Positions 1-40,777 of a stretch of DNA of 64,000 nt are shown piece after piece (the first letter of the stretch is position 1; every line of letters starts with the position of its first letter). Both the position numbers and the translations under genes were made by a program. Below the pieces are notes generated by a model that worked only from the letters and a program-made list of their open reading frames with translations, was not told the DNA's origin and ran no database searches. Origin of the DNA: an uncultured Mycoplasmatota bacterium (GTDB taxonomy: Bacteria > Bacillota_I > Bacilli_A > RF39 > UBA660); assembly GCA_949288035.1 (NCBI GenBank), contig CASEIJ010000022.1:23-64022 (forward strand), given 5' to 3'.

Positions 1-1272
1 GAAATTACAAATCTTACAACTTTAAATTTAGGTGTTGAATTACAACAACCAGGAGCAAGTGCAACATATGATGTTGTTGTAGAAAATCAGGGAGATTTGG
101 ATGCGGTATTATCAAGTATTAATGGAGTAGACGAAGGCAATAACCAAGATCCAAAATCAATTAAAGTGAGTGTAGAAAATATCAGAGTAGGTGATTCATT
201 ACTTGCAGGAGGTAAGAAAACATTCCAAGTAAAAGTATATTGGGATCCTAATGTAGATTTCAGTGATACAAATATGCAAAAAGAAATAGAAATCACATTA
301 ACGTATGAACAAAGTGATGATGGAGTACCAGTAGGACCGATTCCAAGTGATGGAGTAGATATGGGAGGACAGAATGTAGAGTTAGTAACAAGTGGAGATG
401 GATTATATGAAGATCAATATGAAAATGGAAGATATATCTATCGTGGAAGTAATCCAAATAACTATATTCAGTTTAATAATGAACTATGGAGAATCATAGC
501 AAAAGAAACCGATGGAACTTATAAGATAGTAAGAGATGAATTACTACCACAAAATGAAAATTATACAACCATGGCATATGATGCAAGAAATCATCGTTCA
601 ACCGAAAATAATACGTATTGTACATATCCAGATAATGGATGTGGAGTCTATGCAGCAGTAACAGGAACATTCAGGACACCAAATGGAAATTATAGTGGAA
701 CAGTAACAGAAGATTCAAGTATCAAAGAATACTTAAATAATACATACTATCCAACATTAACAGGAATTGCAAAGACACAAGTACAAAGTCATACTTTCAA
801 TATTGGTAGTGTACAGTTGTTAGACGAAAGTAGAAATGATAGTATTGAGAAAAATATAGCCGGAGAGAAGATGTACAAATGGACAGGAAATGTAGGACTT
901 ATTAATGTAAGTGATATATTAAAAGCAAGTACGAATACCGCATGTAAATCGGCAACGGATCAGCAAATGAAATTAATGCAAGACACACCAGAAACTACAT
1001 GTGATAGTAATTACCTATTAGATGCATTATCAATAAATGAAGAATCAGGAGGAATCGGATACTGGACAATGAATGCGTTTTCTGCGGAGTCTGAAGACTA
1101 CTCGTACCATGCCTGGCTTGCGTCTCGTGTTCCTGGGTTGTTGGCCGGGCTTGGTTACTACGATGCGTACTATGACGACACTAATGGGGCGCGTCCAGTT
1201 CTCTATTTGAAATCAAATATTGAACTAACAAGTGGAACAGGGACTAAATTAGACCCGTTTGTAATCGGGTAA
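1..1272 (+). CDS. Surface or pilin-associated protein, 5'-truncated by the window edge; Ig-like N-part and C-terminal lectin-like module ending GARPVLYLK
   Basis: Frame 1 is open from nt 1 (EITNLTTLNLGVELQQPGASATYDVVVENQGDLDA...), so the ATG at 97 is internal. Stop at 1270-1272. Motif YIQFNNELWRII is typical of Firmicute pilin-like adhesins. Confidence 0.6.
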   Translation, partial: EITNLTTLNLGVELQQPGASATYDVVVENQGDLDAVLSSINGVDEGNNQDPKSIKVSVENIRVGDSLLAGGKKTFQVKVYWDPNVDFSDTNMQKEIEITLTYEQSDDGVPVGPIPSDGVDMGGQNVELVTSGDGLYEDQYENGRYIYRGSNPNNYIQFNNELWRIIAKETDGTYKIVRDELLPQNENYTTMAYDARNHRSTENNTYCTYPDNGCGVYAAVTGTFRTPNGNYSGTVTEDSSIKEYLNNTYYPTLTGIAKTQVQSHTFNIGSVQLLDESRNDSIEKNIAGEKMYKWTGNVGLINVSDILKASTNTACKSATDQQMKLMQDTPETTCDSNYLLDALSINEESGGIGYWTMNAFSAESEDYSYHAWLASRVPGLLAGLGYYDAYYDDTNGARPVLYLKSNIELTSGTGTKLDPFVIG

Positions 1273-1298
1273 AGAATAAACAAAAGAATATGTGTTAG

Positions 1299-1344
1299 CA
1301 AAGGCATAAGCCTTTGTAAAAAAATCGCGAAAGCGATTTTTTTT
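1299..1344 (+). terminator. Tandem hairpins plus T-run after the surface-protein gene
   Basis: caaaggc-ataa-gcctttg (1299-1316), then aaaatcgc-gaaa-gcgatttt (1321-1340) followed by TTTT. Confidence 0.6.
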
Positions 1345-1467
1345 GGTAATAGGTTGATAAAGTTGATTTTTGGACTGTACTGATTACAAAGTCTTTTCTA
1401 TTTTTATATTAGAAATTTACAGTGATAATATGTGACAAATTTGTCACGAAGAATATAGGATAATAAC

Positions 1468-1496
1468 TTGCTGATTTTAGGAATTAGTGTTATACT
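1468..1496 (+). promoter_or_regulatory. Sigma-A-type promoter upstream of ltaS-like gene
   Basis: TTGCTG (1468-1473), 17-nt spacer, TATACT (1491-1496) with a TGT extended -10. Confidence 0.45.
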
Positions 1497-1523
1497 GTTT
1501 TAGTATGAATATTGAGGTGAGTT

Positions 1524-3581
1524 ATGCAAAAGAAAATCAAAGATACTTCAAAACGTATTACGAAAAAGATGAAGTCATATTCTGCTAATTATATGAAAAC
1601 AAACATCTTATTTTTAAGCTTTGTTGTGACTTCTGTGTTGAATGCAACACTATTACGTTATTTGACAGTAAAAAATTATTTTGATGTGTTTCCAATTTTA
1701 GCTGATTTAGCAGTTGTAGTAATTATTGGAGCATTTGGTTATTTCTTTAAACCGAAAAATCAATTTAAATATTTTGCTACATGTTCTATCTTTTTTACAG
1801 CGTTATGTATTATTAATTCAATGTATTATACGAATTATTTATCATTTGCATCATTGTCATTGTTACAGACATCATTACAAATTGTAGATGTTGCCGATGC
1901 GGTTGTAGAGAATGTTATGGAGTTAAAGGATTTTTCTTATATATGGGCTCCAATTGCACTGTTCTTTTTAAATCATACATTGAAGAAGAAAGAGTATTAT
2001 AAAAAAGTAGCTGAAATTGAAGTAGGAAAAGTAAGAGCTTTAAATACGATGGTATTTGGACTTGTTGTCGTAGGAGTATTTATTTCTACTTTAAATTCAG
2101 TAGATATTTCAAGACTTGGAAAACAGTGGAATCGTGAGTTTATTGTGATGCGTTTTGGACTATACACTTATCAGATTAACGATGTGATTTCTAGTTTAAA
2201 ACCTCAAATTAGTCCGCTGTTTGGATATGATGAGAAGGCACGTGAGTTTAGAGAATATTACGATAAAAGAAGTCAAGAGACACATGCTGAAAATGAATAT
2301 ACAAATGTTTTCAAGGGTAAGAATTTACTTGTAATTCATGCGGAGAGTATGCAAGAATTTGTGATGGATTTAAAATTTAATGGGGAGGAGTTAACTCCAA
2401 ATTTAAATCGTATTGCTAGTGAAGGATTATTTTTCTCTAATTTCTATGCTCAAGAAAGTGTAGGTACTAGTAGTGATACTGAGTTTACCTTTAATACAGC
2501 TCTTATGCCAGCAACGAGTGGTACAGTATTTATTAGTTATTGGGATAGGGAATATGTTACAATTCCTAAGTTATTAAAAGAACAAGGATATTATGCATTT
2601 AGTATGCATGGTAATAAGGGTAGTATGTGGAATCGTGATACGGTTCATCTAAAAACTTTAGGATATGATAGATTTTATAGTTATAATGATTTTAAAATTG
2701 ATGAGACAATTGGATTGGGATTATCTGATCGCTCATTCTTTAGACAAGTAGTTCCAAAAATTAAGAAAATTCAAGAAAAAAATAAGAATTTTTATGGAAC
2801 ATTGATTATGCTTTCTAACCATACACCATTTTCAGATATTGAACATTTACCAGATCCAATTGAAGTAGATTATAAGTACGAGAAAACAAATCCAGAAACG
2901 GGTGAGAAAGAAACTGTTTCAGCACCATATATGGAAGGAACAAAGTTAGGAAATTACTTTAAGTTTGTACACTATGCAGATAGTGCAATTGGACAATTAT
3001 TTGATGATTTAGATAAAGCGGGTATTTTAGATAATACAGTTGTTGTAATTTATGGAGATCATGATGCGAAGTTAAAACAATCTGAGTTTGAATATTTCTA
3101 TAATTATGATCCTTATACAGATAGTGTATTAGATAAAGATGATCCAAATTATCGTGATGTTGATTTCTATGATTATGAGTTGAATCGTAAAGTACCATTT
3201 ATTATTTGGACAAAAGATCACGAAGATGATAAGTATACGAAAGAGATTACAAAAGTAATGGGAATGTATGATGTACTTCCAACATTAGGAAATATGTTTG
3301 GATTTACTGATAAGTATGCATTAGGTCATGATATCTTCTCAACGGATGAAAATGTTGTTATTTTCCCTGATGGTAATTGGTTGACAGATAAGATGTATTA
3401 TAATCATCAAAAAGGGGAAGGAAAAGTATTACATGATGGTGATACAGTAAGTATTGATTATATTGAAAAGTATAATCAAATGTCAGAGGAATTATTAAAT
3501 GTAAGTGATTCTATTATTGTTTATGATTTAATTAAGAAACAAGATGAAGCAAAAAAAATTGTAGATGATTATAATAAATAG
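1524..3581 (+). CDS. ltaS: Lipoteichoic acid synthase family protein (N-terminal polytopic membrane domain plus extracellular sulfatase-like domain)
   Basis: 685 aa with several N-terminal TM helices. Sulfatase-type motifs LLVIHAESMQEF, SVGTSSDTEFTFNTALMP, YGDHDA. RBS GAGGTGA 6 nt upstream. Confidence 0.8.
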   Translation: MQKKIKDTSKRITKKMKSYSANYMKTNILFLSFVVTSVLNATLLRYLTVKNYFDVFPILADLAVVVIIGAFGYFFKPKNQFKYFATCSIFFTALCIINSMYYTNYLSFASLSLLQTSLQIVDVADAVVENVMELKDFSYIWAPIALFFLNHTLKKKEYYKKVAEIEVGKVRALNTMVFGLVVVGVFISTLNSVDISRLGKQWNREFIVMRFGLYTYQINDVISSLKPQISPLFGYDEKAREFREYYDKRSQETHAENEYTNVFKGKNLLVIHAESMQEFVMDLKFNGEELTPNLNRIASEGLFFSNFYAQESVGTSSDTEFTFNTALMPATSGTVFISYWDREYVTIPKLLKEQGYYAFSMHGNKGSMWNRDTVHLKTLGYDRFYSYNDFKIDETIGLGLSDRSFFRQVVPKIKKIQEKNKNFYGTLIMLSNHTPFSDIEHLPDPIEVDYKYEKTNPETGEKETVSAPYMEGTKLGNYFKFVHYADSAIGQLFDDLDKAGILDNTVVVIYGDHDAKLKQSEFEYFYNYDPYTDSVLDKDDPNYRDVDFYDYELNRKVPFIIWTKDHEDDKYTKEITKVMGMYDVLPTLGNMFGFTDKYALGHDIFSTDENVVIFPDGNWLTDKMYYNHQKGEGKVLHDGDTVSIDYIEKYNQMSEELLNVSDSIIVYDLIKKQDEAKKIVDDYNK

Positions 3582-3590
3582 GAGGATTAT

Positions 3591-4250
3591 ATGGCAGCAA
3601 CTACTCGTACAAAAAAAAGAAAGTTAAAAAAGAAGAGAATTATGATTGCAATGATTGTATTAGTTGCAATCATTGCAGTAGCATCTTTTGGTATTTATCA
3701 GATATGCTTTCATAAAAAGGAAGTAAAAACTGTAGTGACAGTCACGGATAAGATTGCAAATGGATATGATTATACCATTACGGATGAAGCTACAAAATAT
3801 TCAAAAGATTTATTTTCTAAATTAAAGAAGGAATTATCTAAGGATAGTGTGGATGAAGAAAATTATGCGAAATTAGAAACACAATTATTTATTAGTGAAT
3901 TGTTTACATTGGCTAATAAAGTAAATAGAAATGATGTTGGTGGTGTACAGTTTATTTATAAAGATTACCAAGAGTCATTTACGAAAGAAGCGATGGAAGG
4001 ATTATATCACTATGTAGAAAATGATATCTACGGTGATCGAAAACAAGAGCTTCCTGAAGTCGTAAATGTTGATGTTATTAATGTAGAACAAAAAGAGTAT
4101 ATACTAAATGATGAGATAACGGATGATAAAGCATATTATATCGATGTTACTATGAATTATGCGAAAGATCTTGGATACCAAAATTCTGCGACTGTTGTAT
4201 TAATTCATAATGGCAAACGTTTAGATATTGTTAAAATGACTGAGAAATAG
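3591..4250 (+). CDS. Hypothetical membrane-anchored protein
   Basis: Basic N-terminus (TRTKKRKLKKKR), then one TM helix. RBS AGGAGG upstream. No recognisable domain. Confidence 0.5.
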   Translation: MAATTRTKKRKLKKKRIMIAMIVLVAIIAVASFGIYQICFHKKEVKTVVTVTDKIANGYDYTITDEATKYSKDLFSKLKKELSKDSVDEENYAKLETQLFISELFTLANKVNRNDVGGVQFIYKDYQESFTKEAMEGLYHYVENDIYGDRKQELPEVVNVDVINVEQKEYILNDEITDDKAYYIDVTMNYAKDLGYQNSATVVLIHNGKRLDIVKMTEK

Positions 4251-4277
4251 ATGAAAGAATATTCTTTCATCTTTTTT
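4251..4277 (+). terminator. Intrinsic terminator
   Basis: Perfect 20-nt palindrome atgaaagaat/attctttcat followed by CTTTTTTG. Confidence 0.7.
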
Positions 4278-4341
4278 GTAAACAGTAGATGAAAAAAGAG
4301 AGGAAACATGGTATAATGAAAAAGAGAATGAGAGGTAAGCT

Positions 4342-4851
4342 ATGACAGAAGGAAAGAAACAATGGTTGAAGGCATTATTCATTTTATGTATTTTTATTGT
4401 ATTATGGATCTGTTTATTTTTTATGATGAAGAGTCCTACTAAGATAAATTATGATAAAGTGAGTCAATTGACTTTTGAGACTCGTTTGAAACAGGTTTCT
4501 CCTGATATAAAAGGTGAAAAAAAAGATCAATATATCAAGTATCAAATCGATGAAAATAGTGAAATCTATGTCGATTATCAAGAAGGGAATATTTCACGAT
4601 TATTGCTTGTATTTGATCAGGAAAATTATCAAGAAAACGATGCTGCATTATTGTTACAGGAAGTCATTGATATATGTATTCCAAAGTTGGATAACAATGA
4701 AGAGATTACAGAACAATTAATGGACTTTGAGGATAAAGAAGAGGATTTAGTGGCTAATGATATGACTATAGATAATATTGAATTCTTGTCACGTATTGAT
4801 CGTGATAAAGAGAAAGTTGTATTTTATATTTATTATTTAGACAATGAATAA
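4342..4851 (+). CDS. Hypothetical protein with N-terminal TM anchor and acidic C-part
   Basis: ORF with RBS GAGAGG. TM segment LKALFILCIFIVLWICLFFMM. Confidence 0.5.
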   Translation: MTEGKKQWLKALFILCIFIVLWICLFFMMKSPTKINYDKVSQLTFETRLKQVSPDIKGEKKDQYIKYQIDENSEIYVDYQEGNISRLLLVFDQENYQENDAALLLQEVIDICIPKLDNNEEITEQLMDFEDKEEDLVANDMTIDNIEFLSRIDRDKEKVVFYIYYLDNE

Positions 4852-4859
4852 AAGAGGGG

Positions 4860-5180
4860 ATGGATTGTATGGATTTAGTTATTTTTATTGTTTTAGCACT
4901 GATAGTAGTTATTTTATTTAAATCATTTGATAGTTTTGTTTATTTCTTTGCAATCATTGATATTTTACTTCGTATTTTAGATTTTTTAAAACAACTTTTA
5001 AATATTCCGGAATTAACAAGTTTTTTAAATCAATATGTACCAACAAGTATCTTAAGTATGATAAATCAATATTCAACTGGAGTATTTAATCAAATATTGA
5101 CATGGGGATATCTGATTTGCTTTATTGTATTTGAAGTATATTTAGTAAAATATTTTATGAAAACGAAAAGAAGGAGATAA
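4860..5180 (+). CDS. Small integral membrane protein
   Basis: 106 aa with 2-3 hydrophobic helices. Tightly packed between neighbouring ORFs. Confidence 0.45.
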   Translation: MDCMDLVIFIVLALIVVILFKSFDSFVYFFAIIDILLRILDFLKQLLNIPELTSFLNQYVPTSILSMINQYSTGVFNQILTWGYLICFIVFEVYLVKYFMKTKRRR

Positions 5181-5182
5181 TT

Positions 5183-6550
5183 ATGAAAAAGGGTTTTACT
5201 TTAGTAGAGTTATTAGCAACCATTACGATTTTAGGAATTATTGCGTTATTATTGGTACCAACTGTAACAAATGTACTTTCTAGTTTTCGTGGGGATGCTT
5301 CTGAGAATCAAAAAAAGTCTATTGTTTCAGCTGCTAAGTTATGGGCAAGTGATCACCGTGTTGATTTGCCTTCTACTGATGGAGAAACTGTTTGTGTGAA
5401 GGTATCAGAGTTAAAACAAGGGTATTTAGAGGATGATTTAAAAGATCCAAATACGAAACAATCTATTTCTAATAATGCTGGTGTACAGATTAAACGTGTT
5501 GGGAAGTCTTTTGAATATACATACCAGGATACTTGTTCTGGTGTAACTGTTAGTCCTAAGCCAACTGAAAGTTCAAAACCAACTGAAAGTTCAAAACCAA
5601 CTGAAAGTTCAAAACCAACTGAAAGTTCAAAACCAACGAATAGTCCAACGCCTTCAGAGAAGCCGGTTAGTATTCAATTAGCTTTGAAGAATATCAATGT
5701 TACGAGTTCTAGTATTACTTTACAAGCAACTGCTACAGTAACAAATGATACTCTAAAGGGGTATCAATTTTCATCTAATGGTAGTACATGGACATCAGTA
5801 CAAACAAGTGGGACGAAAGTTTTTAGTGGACTTGCTAAAAATACAAAATATGAACTAAGAGTAAGAGCAATTTCTAAGACGAATAAACAGGTTGAAAAAT
5901 CGATTACGGTTTATACCAATAGTATTGGAACACCTACTTATCGTGTGAGTGATACAAGTGATCATAAGAAAAATGTGACGATACAGTATCCAAGCAGTAA
6001 AGAATCTACTTGGGTTTATGAATATTCTTTAGATAGTGGACGAAGTTGGAATGTTGTCAGTGGGGTAAGTTATAGTATAAAGTTTGAACAATCTGGTACT
6101 GTGATTGCTAGAGTAAGAGATACGGGTAATAGTAATAATACAGTGACAGCTAGTGTTTTAACTGTTACAGTCGAAGTCCCGCAATTACAAGTCATTTGTT
6201 CTATGGAACTGGCATCTAATTTCTCATCTAATGATAGATGTGTGACATTTAATAGTTGGCATACAGATTGGGCGTATGTGTATAAAGATGGTACGAGGGA
6301 ATTTCTTACGAATGCGACTGTTGAATTCTTTTATCCAGGTGTGTCTACCCCAGTTACTTATTATAATCAAAATTCTTCTATGACATTACCAAATTTCCCA
6401 TCACCATATAATTCTACTTGTGCTGGAGATGGAAAACAATATAAAGTGCGTATTACTGCACCGAATGGGAAAACGGGAACGGTTGTATACAGTTGGAAAC
6501 TTGGAGATGATGGAAGATATATATTATCTAGTGATCTTCGTGAATATTAG
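5183..6550 (+). CDS. Prepilin-type N-terminal cleavage/methylation domain protein with (PTESSK)n stalk and Ig/FN3-like C-terminal domains
   Basis: N-terminus MKKGFTLVELLATITILGIIALLLVP is the class III (type IV pilin) signal. RBS AAGGAG. Repeat linker, then beta-rich domains. Confidence 0.75.
   Translation: MKKGFTLVELLATITILGIIALLLVPTVTNVLSSFRGDASENQKKSIVSAAKLWASDHRVDLPSTDGETVCVKVSELKQGYLEDDLKDPNTKQSISNNAGVQIKRVGKSFEYTYQDTCSGVTVSPKPTESSKPTESSKPTESSKPTESSKPTNSPTPSEKPVSIQLALKNINVTSSSITLQATATVTNDTLKGYQFSSNGSTWTSVQTSGTKVFSGLAKNTKYELRVRAISKTNKQVEKSITVYTNSIGTPTYRVSDTSDHKKNVTIQYPSSKESTWVYEYSLDSGRSWNVVSGVSYSIKFEQSGTVIARVRDTGNSNNTVTASVLTVTVEVPQLQVICSMELASNFSSNDRCVTFNSWHTDWAYVYKDGTREFLTNATVEFFYPGVSTPVTYYNQNSSMTLPNFPSPYNSTCAGDGKQYKVRITAPNGKTGTVVYSWKLGDDGRYILSSDLREY
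5561..5650 (+). repeat. In-frame 18-bp tandem repeat ccaactgaaagttcaaaa: 4 perfect copies plus 1 degenerate copy
   Basis: Copies at 5561, 5579, 5597 and 5615 are identical. 5633-5650 is diverged (ccaacgaatagtccaacg). Encodes PTESSK units. Confidence 0.9.
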
Positions 6551-21756: not shown

Positions 21757-21800
21757 TTTTTTTGCATGCAAAAAAAGACAGGAATCTGTCTTTTATTTTC
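21757..21800. terminator. Bidirectional terminator between recA and tRNA-Ser
   Basis: Palindrome tttttttgca/tgcaaaaaaa, then hairpin aagacag-gaat-ctgtctt (21775-21792). U-runs are available on both strands. Confidence 0.5.
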
Positions 21801-21803
21801 TTA

Positions 21804-21894
21804 TGGCGGAGTAGGAGAGATTTGAACTCTCGCGCCAGTTGCCCGACCTACACCCTTAGCAGGGGCGCCTCTTCAGCCTCTTGAGTACTACTCC
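21804..21894 (-). tRNA. tRNA-Ser(GCU)
   Basis: Reverse complement folds as GGAGTAG / D-arm / CGCCC-CTGCTAA-GGGTG / long variable arm / GAGAG-TTCAAAT-CTCTC / CTACTCC-G-CCA. Confidence 0.85.
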
Positions 21895-22032
21895 AGTGCT
21901 ACGTCTTTCATTTTACATGATAAATAATAAATTGTCAATTGCTTTTTTGTGAAATTGTGGTATCGACAATCTTTTTTTGATTTCTCATATAAATTATATT
22001 ATAATGTATTTAGAGATACTAGGAGGCAATTT

Positions 22033-35384: not shown

Positions 35385-36188
35385 TTAAAAAATTCTAGTA
35401 ATAGATACACAGCCTGAGTATAGATCGTTTGGTACTAATCTTAAATCGACATCAGAAGTATTAATTAGTCGATAACTTGCTCCTGGAAGAGCTTCAAAGA
35501 TTGCATTTCCACTAATCGTACCAGTATCACAACAAGTTAATTTATTGTGCGTAGAAGAGTGTGCAATTAAGATATCTTCTGGCCAGAATTGGTGGAATTC
35601 AATACCTAAAGTTTTTGGTTCACAACTTTCATCATTCTTATCACTATGTCTTACATTAATCCACCAATGAATGATATAAATACCGGCTTCTGGAATTGAG
35701 AAGTCACCAGTGTTTGGATTATATGTAATTTTATTAGAGATGTTTGTTGTTTGGAATAAAACAGGTTGTTGTACACCGACAGTAGAATTGGTTTCATCAT
35801 GAACCATAGCATAGCTATCTAATAGTGTTCCTGGACCTGCAGGACCAGTCGCACCAGTTGCTCCGGTAGCTCCAGTGGCACCAGTAGCGCCAGTCGTACC
35901 TGTAGGTCCTTGAATACCTTGAGGACCGGTTGGACCTGTTACACCCGTTGCTCCAGTGGCCCCGGTAGCCCCAGTTGCACCTGTAGGTCCTTGAATACCT
36001 TGAGGACCAGTTGCTCCAGTTGCCCCAGTTGCTCCGGTAGCACCAGTATATCCTCTAGGACCAGTTGGCCCGGTTGGTCCAGTAGGACCAGTCGCACCTT
36101 TTTTACAGATGCAGTCAATGACTTTGCATAAGCATTCATCGTTTGATTTGTTTGTCCCATTTGTAATGTTTTCTATTGATTCGTTCAT
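35385..36188 (-). CDS. Collagen-like triple-helix repeat protein with BclA/C1q-like C-terminal domain (probable spore-surface protein)
   Basis: About 29 G-X-Y triplets ([22 protein letters not shown]...), then a beta-rich C-terminal domain. Cys-rich N-terminus [21 protein letters not shown]. Confidence 0.8.
35832..36098 (-). repeat. GXY (mainly GAT/GPT) collagen-like 9-bp periodic repeat tract
   Basis: Runs of ggtgctact / ggaccaact-type triplets. Internal duplication of [10 protein letters not shown](A/T)TGATGATGATG. Locally much more GC-rich than the surroundings. Confidence 0.85.
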
Positions 36189-40368: not shown

Positions 40369-40777
40369 CTTTTAATAAATCACGTATTTCTTCTAGTAAT
40401 AAAATTTGCTCATCTTTCTTTTTCTTTTCTTCTTTTTCTTGTTTGTGTGTGATTCTAGATATGATTTTAATAAAAATAAAGATACAAGAAGCTACAATTA
40501 GAAAGTCAATGACATTTTGTAAAAACATACCATATTGAATGGTTGCATCTCCAATTTTAATATGAAGTGAAGAAAAATTTAACCCTCCAATTAAAATACC
40601 GATGATTGGTGTTAAAATGTCGTTGACCATAGATGTAACAATTTTTCCAAAAGCAGATCCAATAATGACACCAACTGCAAGGTCTATTACGTTTCCTTTA
40701 GAGATGAATTGTTTAAATTCTTTTAAAGTTGAGTTTCCTTTCTTTACTAGTTCTTTTTTATTCGCCTTCTTTTTCAC
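40355..40777 (-). CDS. mscL: Large-conductance mechanosensitive channel
   Basis: [44 protein letters not shown] start at 40777 follows GAGGTGAT. The ORF-track start at 40840 lacks an RBS. Confidence 0.85.

Follow-up and report, generated by a model that had tools for sequence, protein, structure and literature searches.

An adenine-poor, GC-rich patch in a gene of an uncultured Mycoplasmatota bacterium is very probably the variable region of a diversity-generating retroelement target

How does a gene in a genome of 30% GC come to end in a patch of 54% GC that is poor in adenine? The question is raised by a 64,000-nt stretch of DNA (the window) from an uncultured Mycoplasmatota bacterium (contig CASEIJ010000022.1 of assembly GCA_949288035.1, positions 23 to 64,022 of the forward strand), whose first gene carries such a patch near its 3′ end. 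A prediction made from the letters alone (the original prediction) had proposed that the patch is a variable region (VR) diversified by a diversity-generating retroelement (DGR), with recombination from a higher-GC homologue as the main alternative. Our analysis leads us to conclude, with high confidence, that window positions 1077–1198 are the VR of a DGR target gene and that their sequence was produced by mutagenic retrohoming. We observed the signature of a VR at this locus, the existence and architecture of the retroelement cassette in relatives, an adenine-specific pattern of differences from the template repeats (TRs) of those cassettes, and natural variation restricted to the VR. This genome presumably carries such a cassette too. 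Related loci and their proteins are designated by L and P numbers, respectively.

Results

The patch is a real, isolated compositional island within an ordinary protein-coding frame. Positions 1081–1200 contain 18 A, 37 G, 30 C and 35 T (G+C 67/120), and no A occurs in the 47 nt from 1110 to 1156, exactly as originally counted. This A-free run is the longest in the 64 kb, where a model of independent, identically distributed bases expects ~3e-5 such runs, and the lowest A content per 120 nt in the window (17) belongs to stretches starting at 1073–1077. Over 1060–1203, A amounts to 16.7% and GC to 53.5%, compared with 42.2% and 33.2% at gene positions 1–1059 and 36.7% and 30.3% in the whole window, so that the reported contrast between the patch and its A-rich, low-GC surroundings is real. 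The A-free codon usage inside the patch is directly visible in the sequence, as described before. Elsewhere in the window, only two patches reach at least 60 G+C per 120 nt. Both are unrelated to the VR and were rejected as TR or VR candidates: that at 21759–21928 is a tRNA-Ser (21804–21894, minus strand), and that at 35759–36150 is a collagen-like gene of GXY repeats (35385–36188, minus strand). An A-poor stretch at 40413–40451 was also discarded as T/C-rich low-complexity sequence in an MscL open reading frame (ORF), on the opposite strand.

TRs were predicted by writing A at every variable position of VR DNA from several loci, and the predictions were then used in blastn searches. The predicted TR matched real sequences at 96% in L021, a locus of the closed 1.26-Mb metagenome-assembled genome (MAG) OZ006994.1 (‘uncultured Bacilli bacterium'), and at 93% in L022, each following the VR of a target gene at a distance of ~220 nt. 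The TRs are ~120 nt long and hold 32–36 adenines, mostly in AAY codons. Their translation would read ...SAESEDNSNNAWNAARATGLAGLDNNNANNDNNNGARP..., and they end in ...CCAGATCTCTAATAAAAC. A repeat whose mismatches fall at adenines, which the original prediction had proposed to look for, is found in related genomes and metagenome contigs, but not in the 64 kb.

In the related cassettes, the target gene, TR, a MutS-like gene, an Avd-like gene and a reverse transcriptase (RT) gene follow one another in this order on a single strand. The RT (385–386 aa) matches RVT_1 above the cutoff (E 1.7e-18) and carries IGNMTSQ at residue 229 and YMDD at 261; an RT of the DGR type adjoins the TR in L022, L024, L025 and L031. 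Between the MutS-like gene and the RT lies an Avd-like ORF of 114 aa, which spans the full model length and scores E 7.4e-9 and 36.5 bits with Pfam bAvd (cutoff 40) and E 1.2e-10 and 41.7 bits with NCBIfam DivGenRetAVD (cutoff 80). Precomputed Pfam matches list bAvd in L023–L026. The MutS-like ORF (132–135 aa) matches MutS_I marginally (E 7.6e-4, 20.1 bits, cutoff 20.6). The adjacent RT that had been proposed as a check is present beside the TRs of relatives, together with this Avd-like ORF, whose scores are below the curated cutoffs. The cassette was also found in L023–L026 and in the metagenome contigs L031 and L032 (the latter recorded as human gut metagenome). Housekeeping genes flank the cassettes, namely those for a GDSL lipase, Maf, FtsW, MraY and a penicillin-binding protein. 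We rejected a phage origin of the cassette on the grounds that IMG/VR holds no copy of the TR and that the cassette RT shares no more than 37.5% identity with the phage RTs of INPHARED.

Several features of individual cassettes are recorded here in their own right. TR and MutS-like ORF are separated by ~230 nt that are strongly conserved among cassettes (L021:1040–800 on the minus strand, L022:1450–1710, L024:130–390) and may form a structured 3′ part of the TR RNA that is used in priming; Rfam detected no family in this spacer or in window positions 1–1600. At L026:2850–6000 (ENA ERZ16268155 scaffold_12621), a cassette adjoins the closest homologue of the window protein. Its RT gene is split by a group II intron (Rfam RF02005 at 3675–3901, RF00029 at 5487–5560 and a 438-aa RVT_1+GIIM ORF at 4153–5469), and a VR of one scaffold class (R, see below) stands beside a TR of the other (F). 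Short ORFs of 78–82 aa at L029:159–395 and L030:91–330 (P0438–P0441) join a TR leader (MASEELWGYT.NRALFSAES...) to a body followed by the 3′ element described below and the C-terminal tail of the target gene; the body is an unmutated TR in L029 and a diversified VR in L030, and P0440 has 13 member sequences. They may have arisen by recombination between TR and VR or as self-targeted TRs, or else be chimeras made by short-read assembly.

Comparison of VRs with TRs gave an adenine-specific pattern. In the cognate VR/TR pair of L021 all differences fall at TR adenines (13/13, p=5e-9), as do 22/25 in that of L022. The family has two scaffold classes, ‘R' (W.AAR..GLAGL), which includes the window, and ‘F' (W.AAF.QGVG.F). 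The TRs compared with the window VR come from related genomes or from ENA series ERZ16268xxx, and not demonstrably from this genome; L029 (ERZ16268098) belongs to the same series as L028, a contig of the window strain, and its TR is identical to the prediction. Against this R-type TR (34 A in 119 nt), the window VR shows 17 substitutions, of which 16 lie at TR adenines (hypergeometric p=1.2e-9). They comprise nine A>T, four A>C and three A>G changes between 1099 and 1181; 18 of the 34 adenines are kept and 16 replaced. Against TR21, from MAG OZ006994.1, there are also 17 substitutions, 14 of them at adenines (p=3.6e-7). Together with the discovery of TRs in relatives, these figures support the VR assignment of the original prediction.

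The same TRs account for the composition of the patch. Overall they contain 27% A and 51% GC, and their non-adenine part has 70% GC. TR adenines are almost confined to AAY, GAN and ACT codons, while the scaffold is written in GCG, GCC, GGG, TTG, CTT, CGT, TCG and TGG, the very codons that had been singled out before. Because the scaffold uses A-free codons, the patch is shifted towards GC, and for the same reason the scaffold is not mutable by an adenine-specific mutator: avoidance of A at positions that must not vary is a demand of such a mutator. The TR holds just seven adenines across 1110–1156, all of which are replaced in the window copy, hence the 47-nt A-free run. A total absence of A had been thought too extreme for A-to-N randomization. 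The A-free scaffold and the seven replaced adenines remove this difficulty, and a higher-GC donor is therefore not needed.

The 3′ ends of VRs and TRs differ in a way that recalls the initiation of mutagenic homing (IMH) element of known DGRs. The IMH-like element of the window occurs there in a single copy and is identical at 29/29 positions to those of the cassette-adjacent VRs of L021, L022 and L026. TRs carry GGGGCGCGTCCAGATCTCTAATAAAAC instead, which diverges from the VR element from the 14th base onwards. Following the definitions of IMH and IMH* in PMC5758913, the VR and TR ends appear, from their sequences, to be related as IMH to IMH*. The window VR ends ~85 nt before the stop codon, so that the IMH-like element is coding. 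Homology to the cassettes continues for 50 nt past the stop codon, matching their target-to-TR spacer, and ends at ~1322. This part includes a hairpin that is also found in L021, L022, L025, L026, L029 and L030, with an identical stem and a variable loop, and is degenerate or absent at other remote targets. Positions 1186–1350 as a whole fold with z=-5.4. A small AT-rich hairpin immediately after the IMH-like element (~1204–1219) is not claimed, being too weak and not conserved.

Natural variation in the family is concentrated in the patch. In an alignment of 121 homologues, columns with an entropy above 3 bits are confined to window residues 365–395, where invariant S, W, A and G stand between them. 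These columns use Y, G, D, N, S, R, F, I, H, A, T, L, V, C and P and almost never K, E, Q, M or W, which is exactly the NNY set expected of AAY template codons. Partly variable columns show G/D/E/V/A, as from GAN templates, or D/G/V/A, as from GAY templates. A set of 40 proteins with at least 99% identity beyond the VR holds 36 different VRs. The R-type cassette-adjacent target (90% cluster) has ten distinct VRs on proteins that are mostly 98–99% identical over the 250 residues before the VR. Variation across six distinct R-type VRs affects 29 of 32 TR-A sites, against 11 of 87 non-A sites (Fisher p=2e-15), and the variable sites number 17, 19 and 4 at codon positions 1, 2 and 3, respectively. 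The strain alignment suggested originally thus places the variability of the family in the codons of the patch. The template permits ~10^18 protein variants. Since dozens of VR variants occur on otherwise identical genes in natural populations, the system is being actively used in the gut.

The window encodes the 3′ part of the target gene, its N-terminus being cut off by the window and contig end. BLASTP found 1992 homologues, the best 120 at 73–84% identity. Full-length homologues have ~486–498 aa and, in the alignment consensus, an N-terminal hydrophobic anchor or signal. The target protein is membrane-anchored or secreted, and its C-terminal domain, assigned below to the DUF6273 fold, displays the VR. 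This module of ~300 residues is widespread, with 1789 representatives at E<=0.001 among 50%-identity clusters. Of 32 family members, 24 match Pfam DUF6273 (PF19789), with a best E of 1.3e-6; the window protein stays below threshold (E 0.059, 13.7 bits, cutoff 23.5; model positions 34–171 of 172). An AlphaFold2 (AF2) model of window residues 121–423 reached a pLDDT of 92.2 with a diverse alignment drawn from the 50%-cluster library, as opposed to 38 with a shallow alignment of 121 sequences. In this model, the VR forms two strands (model residues 250–256 and 262–268) and the following loop, that is, a β-hairpin plus loop.

Foldseek matched the model to PDB 9qa6, an IgA peptidase of Thomasclavelia ramosa whose N-terminal domain is annotated DUF6273 (E 1.3e-7), and to BFVD A0A8S5VBN9, a phage ‘DUF6273 domain-containing protein' (E 8.4e-9, TM 0.49/0.46). 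A profile search of PDB sequences gave no match, neither Mtd nor TvpA appears in the best 50 of 145 Foldseek matches to the PDB (E<=10), and matches to EgtB, which resembles the formylglycine-generating enzyme (FGE), are weak (probability ~0.1, TM 0.19). The model supports assignment of the C-terminal domain to the DUF6273 fold, a known DGR target domain: DUF6273 has been described as such, with a C-lectin-like fold and the VR at its C-terminal end (PMC11792537, PMC10743442). The original prediction had spoken of a lectin-like module, and DUF6273 is C-type-lectin-like according to the literature; the modelling that had been proposed yielded a confident predicted fold with the VR on a hairpin and loop. 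The N-terminal DUF6273 domain of 9qa6, from a protease of a gut bacterium, is the sole solved structure with this fold.

Is the window copy served by a cassette of its own? A direct-repeat search, an ungapped adenine-tolerant scan of both strands and blastn with predicted TRs recovered from the window only the VR itself, the low scores of the scan being merely A-rich DNA. ORFs of at least 200 aa contain no Y[x]DD motif, and no tblastn match of the three cassette proteins to the window rose above noise (E at least 0.12). The original prediction had seen no RT, Avd or TR near the patch, and this extends to the whole 64 kb. The window thus lacks TR, Avd, MutS-like gene and RT, and the copy is therefore a remote target or an orphan. 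Where relatives have these four elements, the window locus has an intrinsic-terminator-like hairpin and then ltaS (1524–3581, Pfam LtaS_N and Sulfatase), the gene already reported to follow. The same strain is represented by L028 (ENA ERZ16268291, 68,909 nt), which is 99.94% identical over 11.3 kb and extends upstream to a point 22 nt beyond window nt 1. Over its first 210 nt, L028 departs from the window at five positions and by a 2-nt deletion that frameshifts the gene, probably through mixing of paralogues at the contig end. A single VR state is known at the window locus (window = L028).

Remote targets have been reported for non-phage DGRs (Wu et al., PMC5758913), and relatives of the window strain also appear to have them. 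OZ006994.1 contains five VR-bearing paralogues (L015, L016, L018, L019 and L021), and a TR was found beside one only. A contig scan with a pattern that included the IMH returned eight VRs and no TR. In this MAG the R and F scaffolds coexist, the TR found being R-type and one of the five VRs F-type, and a second TR may be present. P0022 and P0434, encoded by the same remote gene in different strains, are identical at 459 of 482 residues; the VR accounts for 20 of the 23 differences and has exchanged the R scaffold completely for the F scaffold, a switch that nothing but templated replacement of the entire VR explains. At the P0004 locus, ORFs of 346 and 123 aa beside an integrase were considered as RT and Avd and rejected, as no Pfam matches supported them.

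Metagenome assemblies break at these genes because of the repeats. Logan contig L001 starts at window position 1276, L023 and L024 begin inside the TR and L031 and L032 in the 3′ end of the VR, so that independent assemblies break in or beside them. Paralogue P0078, which has an F-type VR (L008–L014, for example L008:10001–16762), lies directly upstream of a tad/Flp-type pilus operon with TadE, a ParA/CpaE-like ATPase, T2SSE and two T2SSF genes; this adjacency hints at a link of the variable protein to pilus-mediated adhesion. Two other genes of the window are mentioned for completeness. One (5183–6550, plus strand) encodes a pilin-like protein with a prepilin N-methylation motif, an fn3 domain and five tandem 18-nt repeats (~5545–5648) that encode PTESSK. 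The other is the collagen-like gene at 35385–36188 (Pfam Collagen E 6e-14), the strongest GC-rich patch of the window, whose product has a weak BclA_C/C1q-like C-terminal domain and bears no relation to the DGR. The features of the target locus are listed in Table 1.

Table 1. Coordinates of features at the target locus (window positions)
Feature	Position	Strand	Basis or remark
Putative DGR target gene, 3′ part (423 codons + stop)	1..1272	+	Frame open from nt 1; stop codon at 1270–1272
Predicted DUF6273-fold domain, C-terminal, ~300 aa	361..1269	+	Pfam in family, AF2 model, Foldseek
Variable region (very probable), TR-homologous stretch	1077..1198	+	TR adenines map to 1088–1197; substitutions at 1099–1181
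Sole substitution off TR adenines, TR G to T, GCT Ala to TCT Ser	1123	+	Comparison with L029 TR
TTG TTG, one extra Leu codon; in-frame 3-nt duplication within VR	1138..1143	+	Comparison with TRs and homologues
IMH-like element GGGGCGCGTCCAGTTCTCTATTTGAAATC, GC-rich start and VR-specific tail	1186..1214	+	Comparison with cassette VRs
Hairpin just after stop, 7-bp stem CAAAGGC/GCCTTTG, 4-nt loop	1299..1316	+	Conserved with target-to-TR spacer of cassettes
Intrinsic-terminator-like hairpin and T-run	1318..1344	+	Also at other remote targets; sits where cassettes have TR, MutS-like gene, Avd and RT

Discussion

The evidence for a DGR-written VR has to be set against several observations that weigh on the other side. 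The 64 kb contain no TR, RT, Avd or MutS-like gene. L028, the only other contig of the strain, also ends within the target gene, and a cognate cassette would have to lie elsewhere in the genome. In the related cassettes, the Avd and MutS-like matches fall short of curated cutoffs. The window VR itself departs from every TR found by one non-adenine substitution (1123) and one extra TTG (1138–1143), both of which fresh homing from the known TRs would erase. The Ser encoded at 1123 is rare in the family (alignment column 458, A94 S5), and the extra Leu (column 465) is absent from every TR found and from 118 of 121 homologues, three homologues carrying a residue there. A search with the TR-encoded peptide turned up no TR that has the Ser or Leu-Leu peculiar to the window, and a metagenome scan that tolerated a 3-nt insertion recovered only TR21-like copies. 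Finally, the remote R-type VRs of the P0004 group are identical across proteins that are 85–97% identical elsewhere, and some remote copies therefore appear static.

Several of these points would also be explained if the window VR were a fossil or orphan, written by a DGR in the past and now evolving as ordinary coding DNA, the cassette having been lost or the copy being no longer recognized. The missing cassette, the private TTG and non-adenine substitution and the static P0004 group are all compatible with such a history, as is L026, where, in the cassette of the closest paralogue, the VR is R-type, the TR F-type and the RT gene interrupted. Yet a group II intron can splice out, so that the L026 RT need not be dead, and remote loci in sister genomes have been completely rewritten. 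The IMH-like element of the window is unchanged relative to that of actively varying cassette targets, and 16 of its 17 differences from the nearest TR fall at adenines, so that little ordinary drift has taken place since the last homing. We therefore hold a fossil VR to be possible but the less probable account, and are inclined, by a narrow balance, to think that the window copy is still being rewritten in this strain.

Explanations that dispense with a retroelement fare far worse. Composition alone suggests that the C-terminal segment came from a higher-GC homologue, by mosaic recombination or horizontal transfer. The same GC-rich scaffold, however, is present in every family member, all of which come from AT-rich Bacilli or Acholeplasmataceae MAGs, and it is base-for-base identical to the non-adenine positions of the TR. 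Copies moreover differ at first and second positions of AAY-templated codons, which transfer does not predict, and we consider this origin, the main alternative of the original prediction, extremely improbable. Diversifying selection with gene conversion among paralogues, requiring no RT, could draw on the several paralogues per genome, on the assemblies that break inside the gene and on the possible TR x VR hybrid contigs. It cannot, though, make 36 distinct VRs on an otherwise identical gene, and it leaves unexplained the restriction to TR-adenine positions, the NNY spectrum and the untranslated all-AAY master copy beside Avd and RT; this process, too, is very unlikely to have produced the patch.

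The mechanism would be that of a canonical DGR, with adenine-specific transfer from TR to VR, IMH and IMH*, a putative Avd and an RT of the DGR clade; the individual steps are taken from archetypal DGRs. RNA of a TR of ~120 nt located elsewhere in the genome would be reverse-transcribed by the DGR-type RT with Avd, a MutS-like accessory protein also being encoded. Random nucleotides would be inserted opposite template adenines, and the cDNA would replace the VR, its 3′ boundary set by the IMH element. The GC-rich patch would then combine the A-free invariant scaffold with the replacement of 16 of 34 TR adenines in the window copy.

The closest parallels are the Treponema denticola element, for its remote targets, and the MutS-like (MSL) cassettes of Legionella and Bacteroides. 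Like the system described here, the Treponema denticola DGR (TvpA and seven remote targets) is chromosomal and non-phage, serves scattered paralogous surface proteins from one cassette (PMC5758913) and carries the VR C-terminally on a lectin-like domain. The accessory gene of the Treponema element is HRDC, whereas an Avd-like and a MutS-like protein are found here; and the target domain here, DUF6273, is by sequence not the FGE-sulfatase type of C-type lectin (CLec) fold, with no PDB sequence match and only weak EgtB/FGE fold matches. MSL-containing DGRs (Architecture D of Wu et al. 2017, for example in Legionella pneumophila; PMC5758913) share with the related cassettes the order of target, TR, MutS-domain-I-like ORF, Avd and RT, and Msl plus Avd has been reported for Bacteroides DGRs (bioRxiv 10.1101/2024.11.15.621889). 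Their hosts differ from the gut Bacilli or Acholeplasmataceae-like lineage with a 1.26-Mb genome considered here, and their targets are Legionella lipoproteins and Bacteroides type V pilus adhesins instead of DUF6273 proteins, the MutS_I match being marginal in our case.

With the DGR of Bordetella phage BPP-1 (mtd, avd, TR, brt) the present system has in common adenine-specific TR-to-VR transfer and AAY codons (PMC5758913), a GC-rich IMH at the VR 3′ end versus a divergent IMH* at the TR, and an invariant scaffold from non-adenine positions. BPP-1 is phage-borne with a single adjacent target, whereas here the TR precedes the accessory genes and RT, the IMH is coding, and the conserved hairpin lies ~85 nt beyond it and not directly after. 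The DUF6273 targets of gut phages (Faecalibacterium prophages; ‘tentaclins') belong to the same domain family and have the VR in the C-terminal part (PMC11792537, PMC10743442). That VR has been described as a surface β-hairpin with flanking loops on a C-lectin-like globular domain, which matches the secondary structure of our model. The phage proteins are receptor-binding or decoration proteins; here, by contrast, the cassettes stand among housekeeping genes and their RT is distant from phage RTs.

The novelty lies in the host lineage (small-genome gut Bacilli or Acholeplasmataceae-like MAGs) and in this target family. New, too, is that a remote VR could be detected by base composition alone, as a patch stripped of A and shifted towards GC where an AT-rich gene nears its 3′ end. 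Such a signature works when the retroelement is far away or off the contig, where DGR finders that depend on the cassette miss the target.

The finding adds a membrane-anchored DUF6273 family of small-genome human-gut Bacilli to the targets of chromosomal DGRs with multiple remote copies. A more far-reaching proposal, which we regard as speculative and rather unlikely, is that the family constitutes a multi-target, two-scaffold repertoire system of reduced-genome gut Bacilli, with R and F TRs overwriting the same remote locus, TR x VR mini-targets (the 78–82-aa ORFs) and a group II intron in the RT gene. Scaffold switching, TR-leader/VR hybrids and the intron may prove genuine and are candidate observations pending long-read confirmation. 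If they are true and not assembly artefacts, scaffold switching and point diversification would be combined in a combinatorial layer not described for DGRs, and the domain subject to this variation would be one that also makes up the N-terminal module of an immunoglobulin A (IgA) protease from a gut bacterium.

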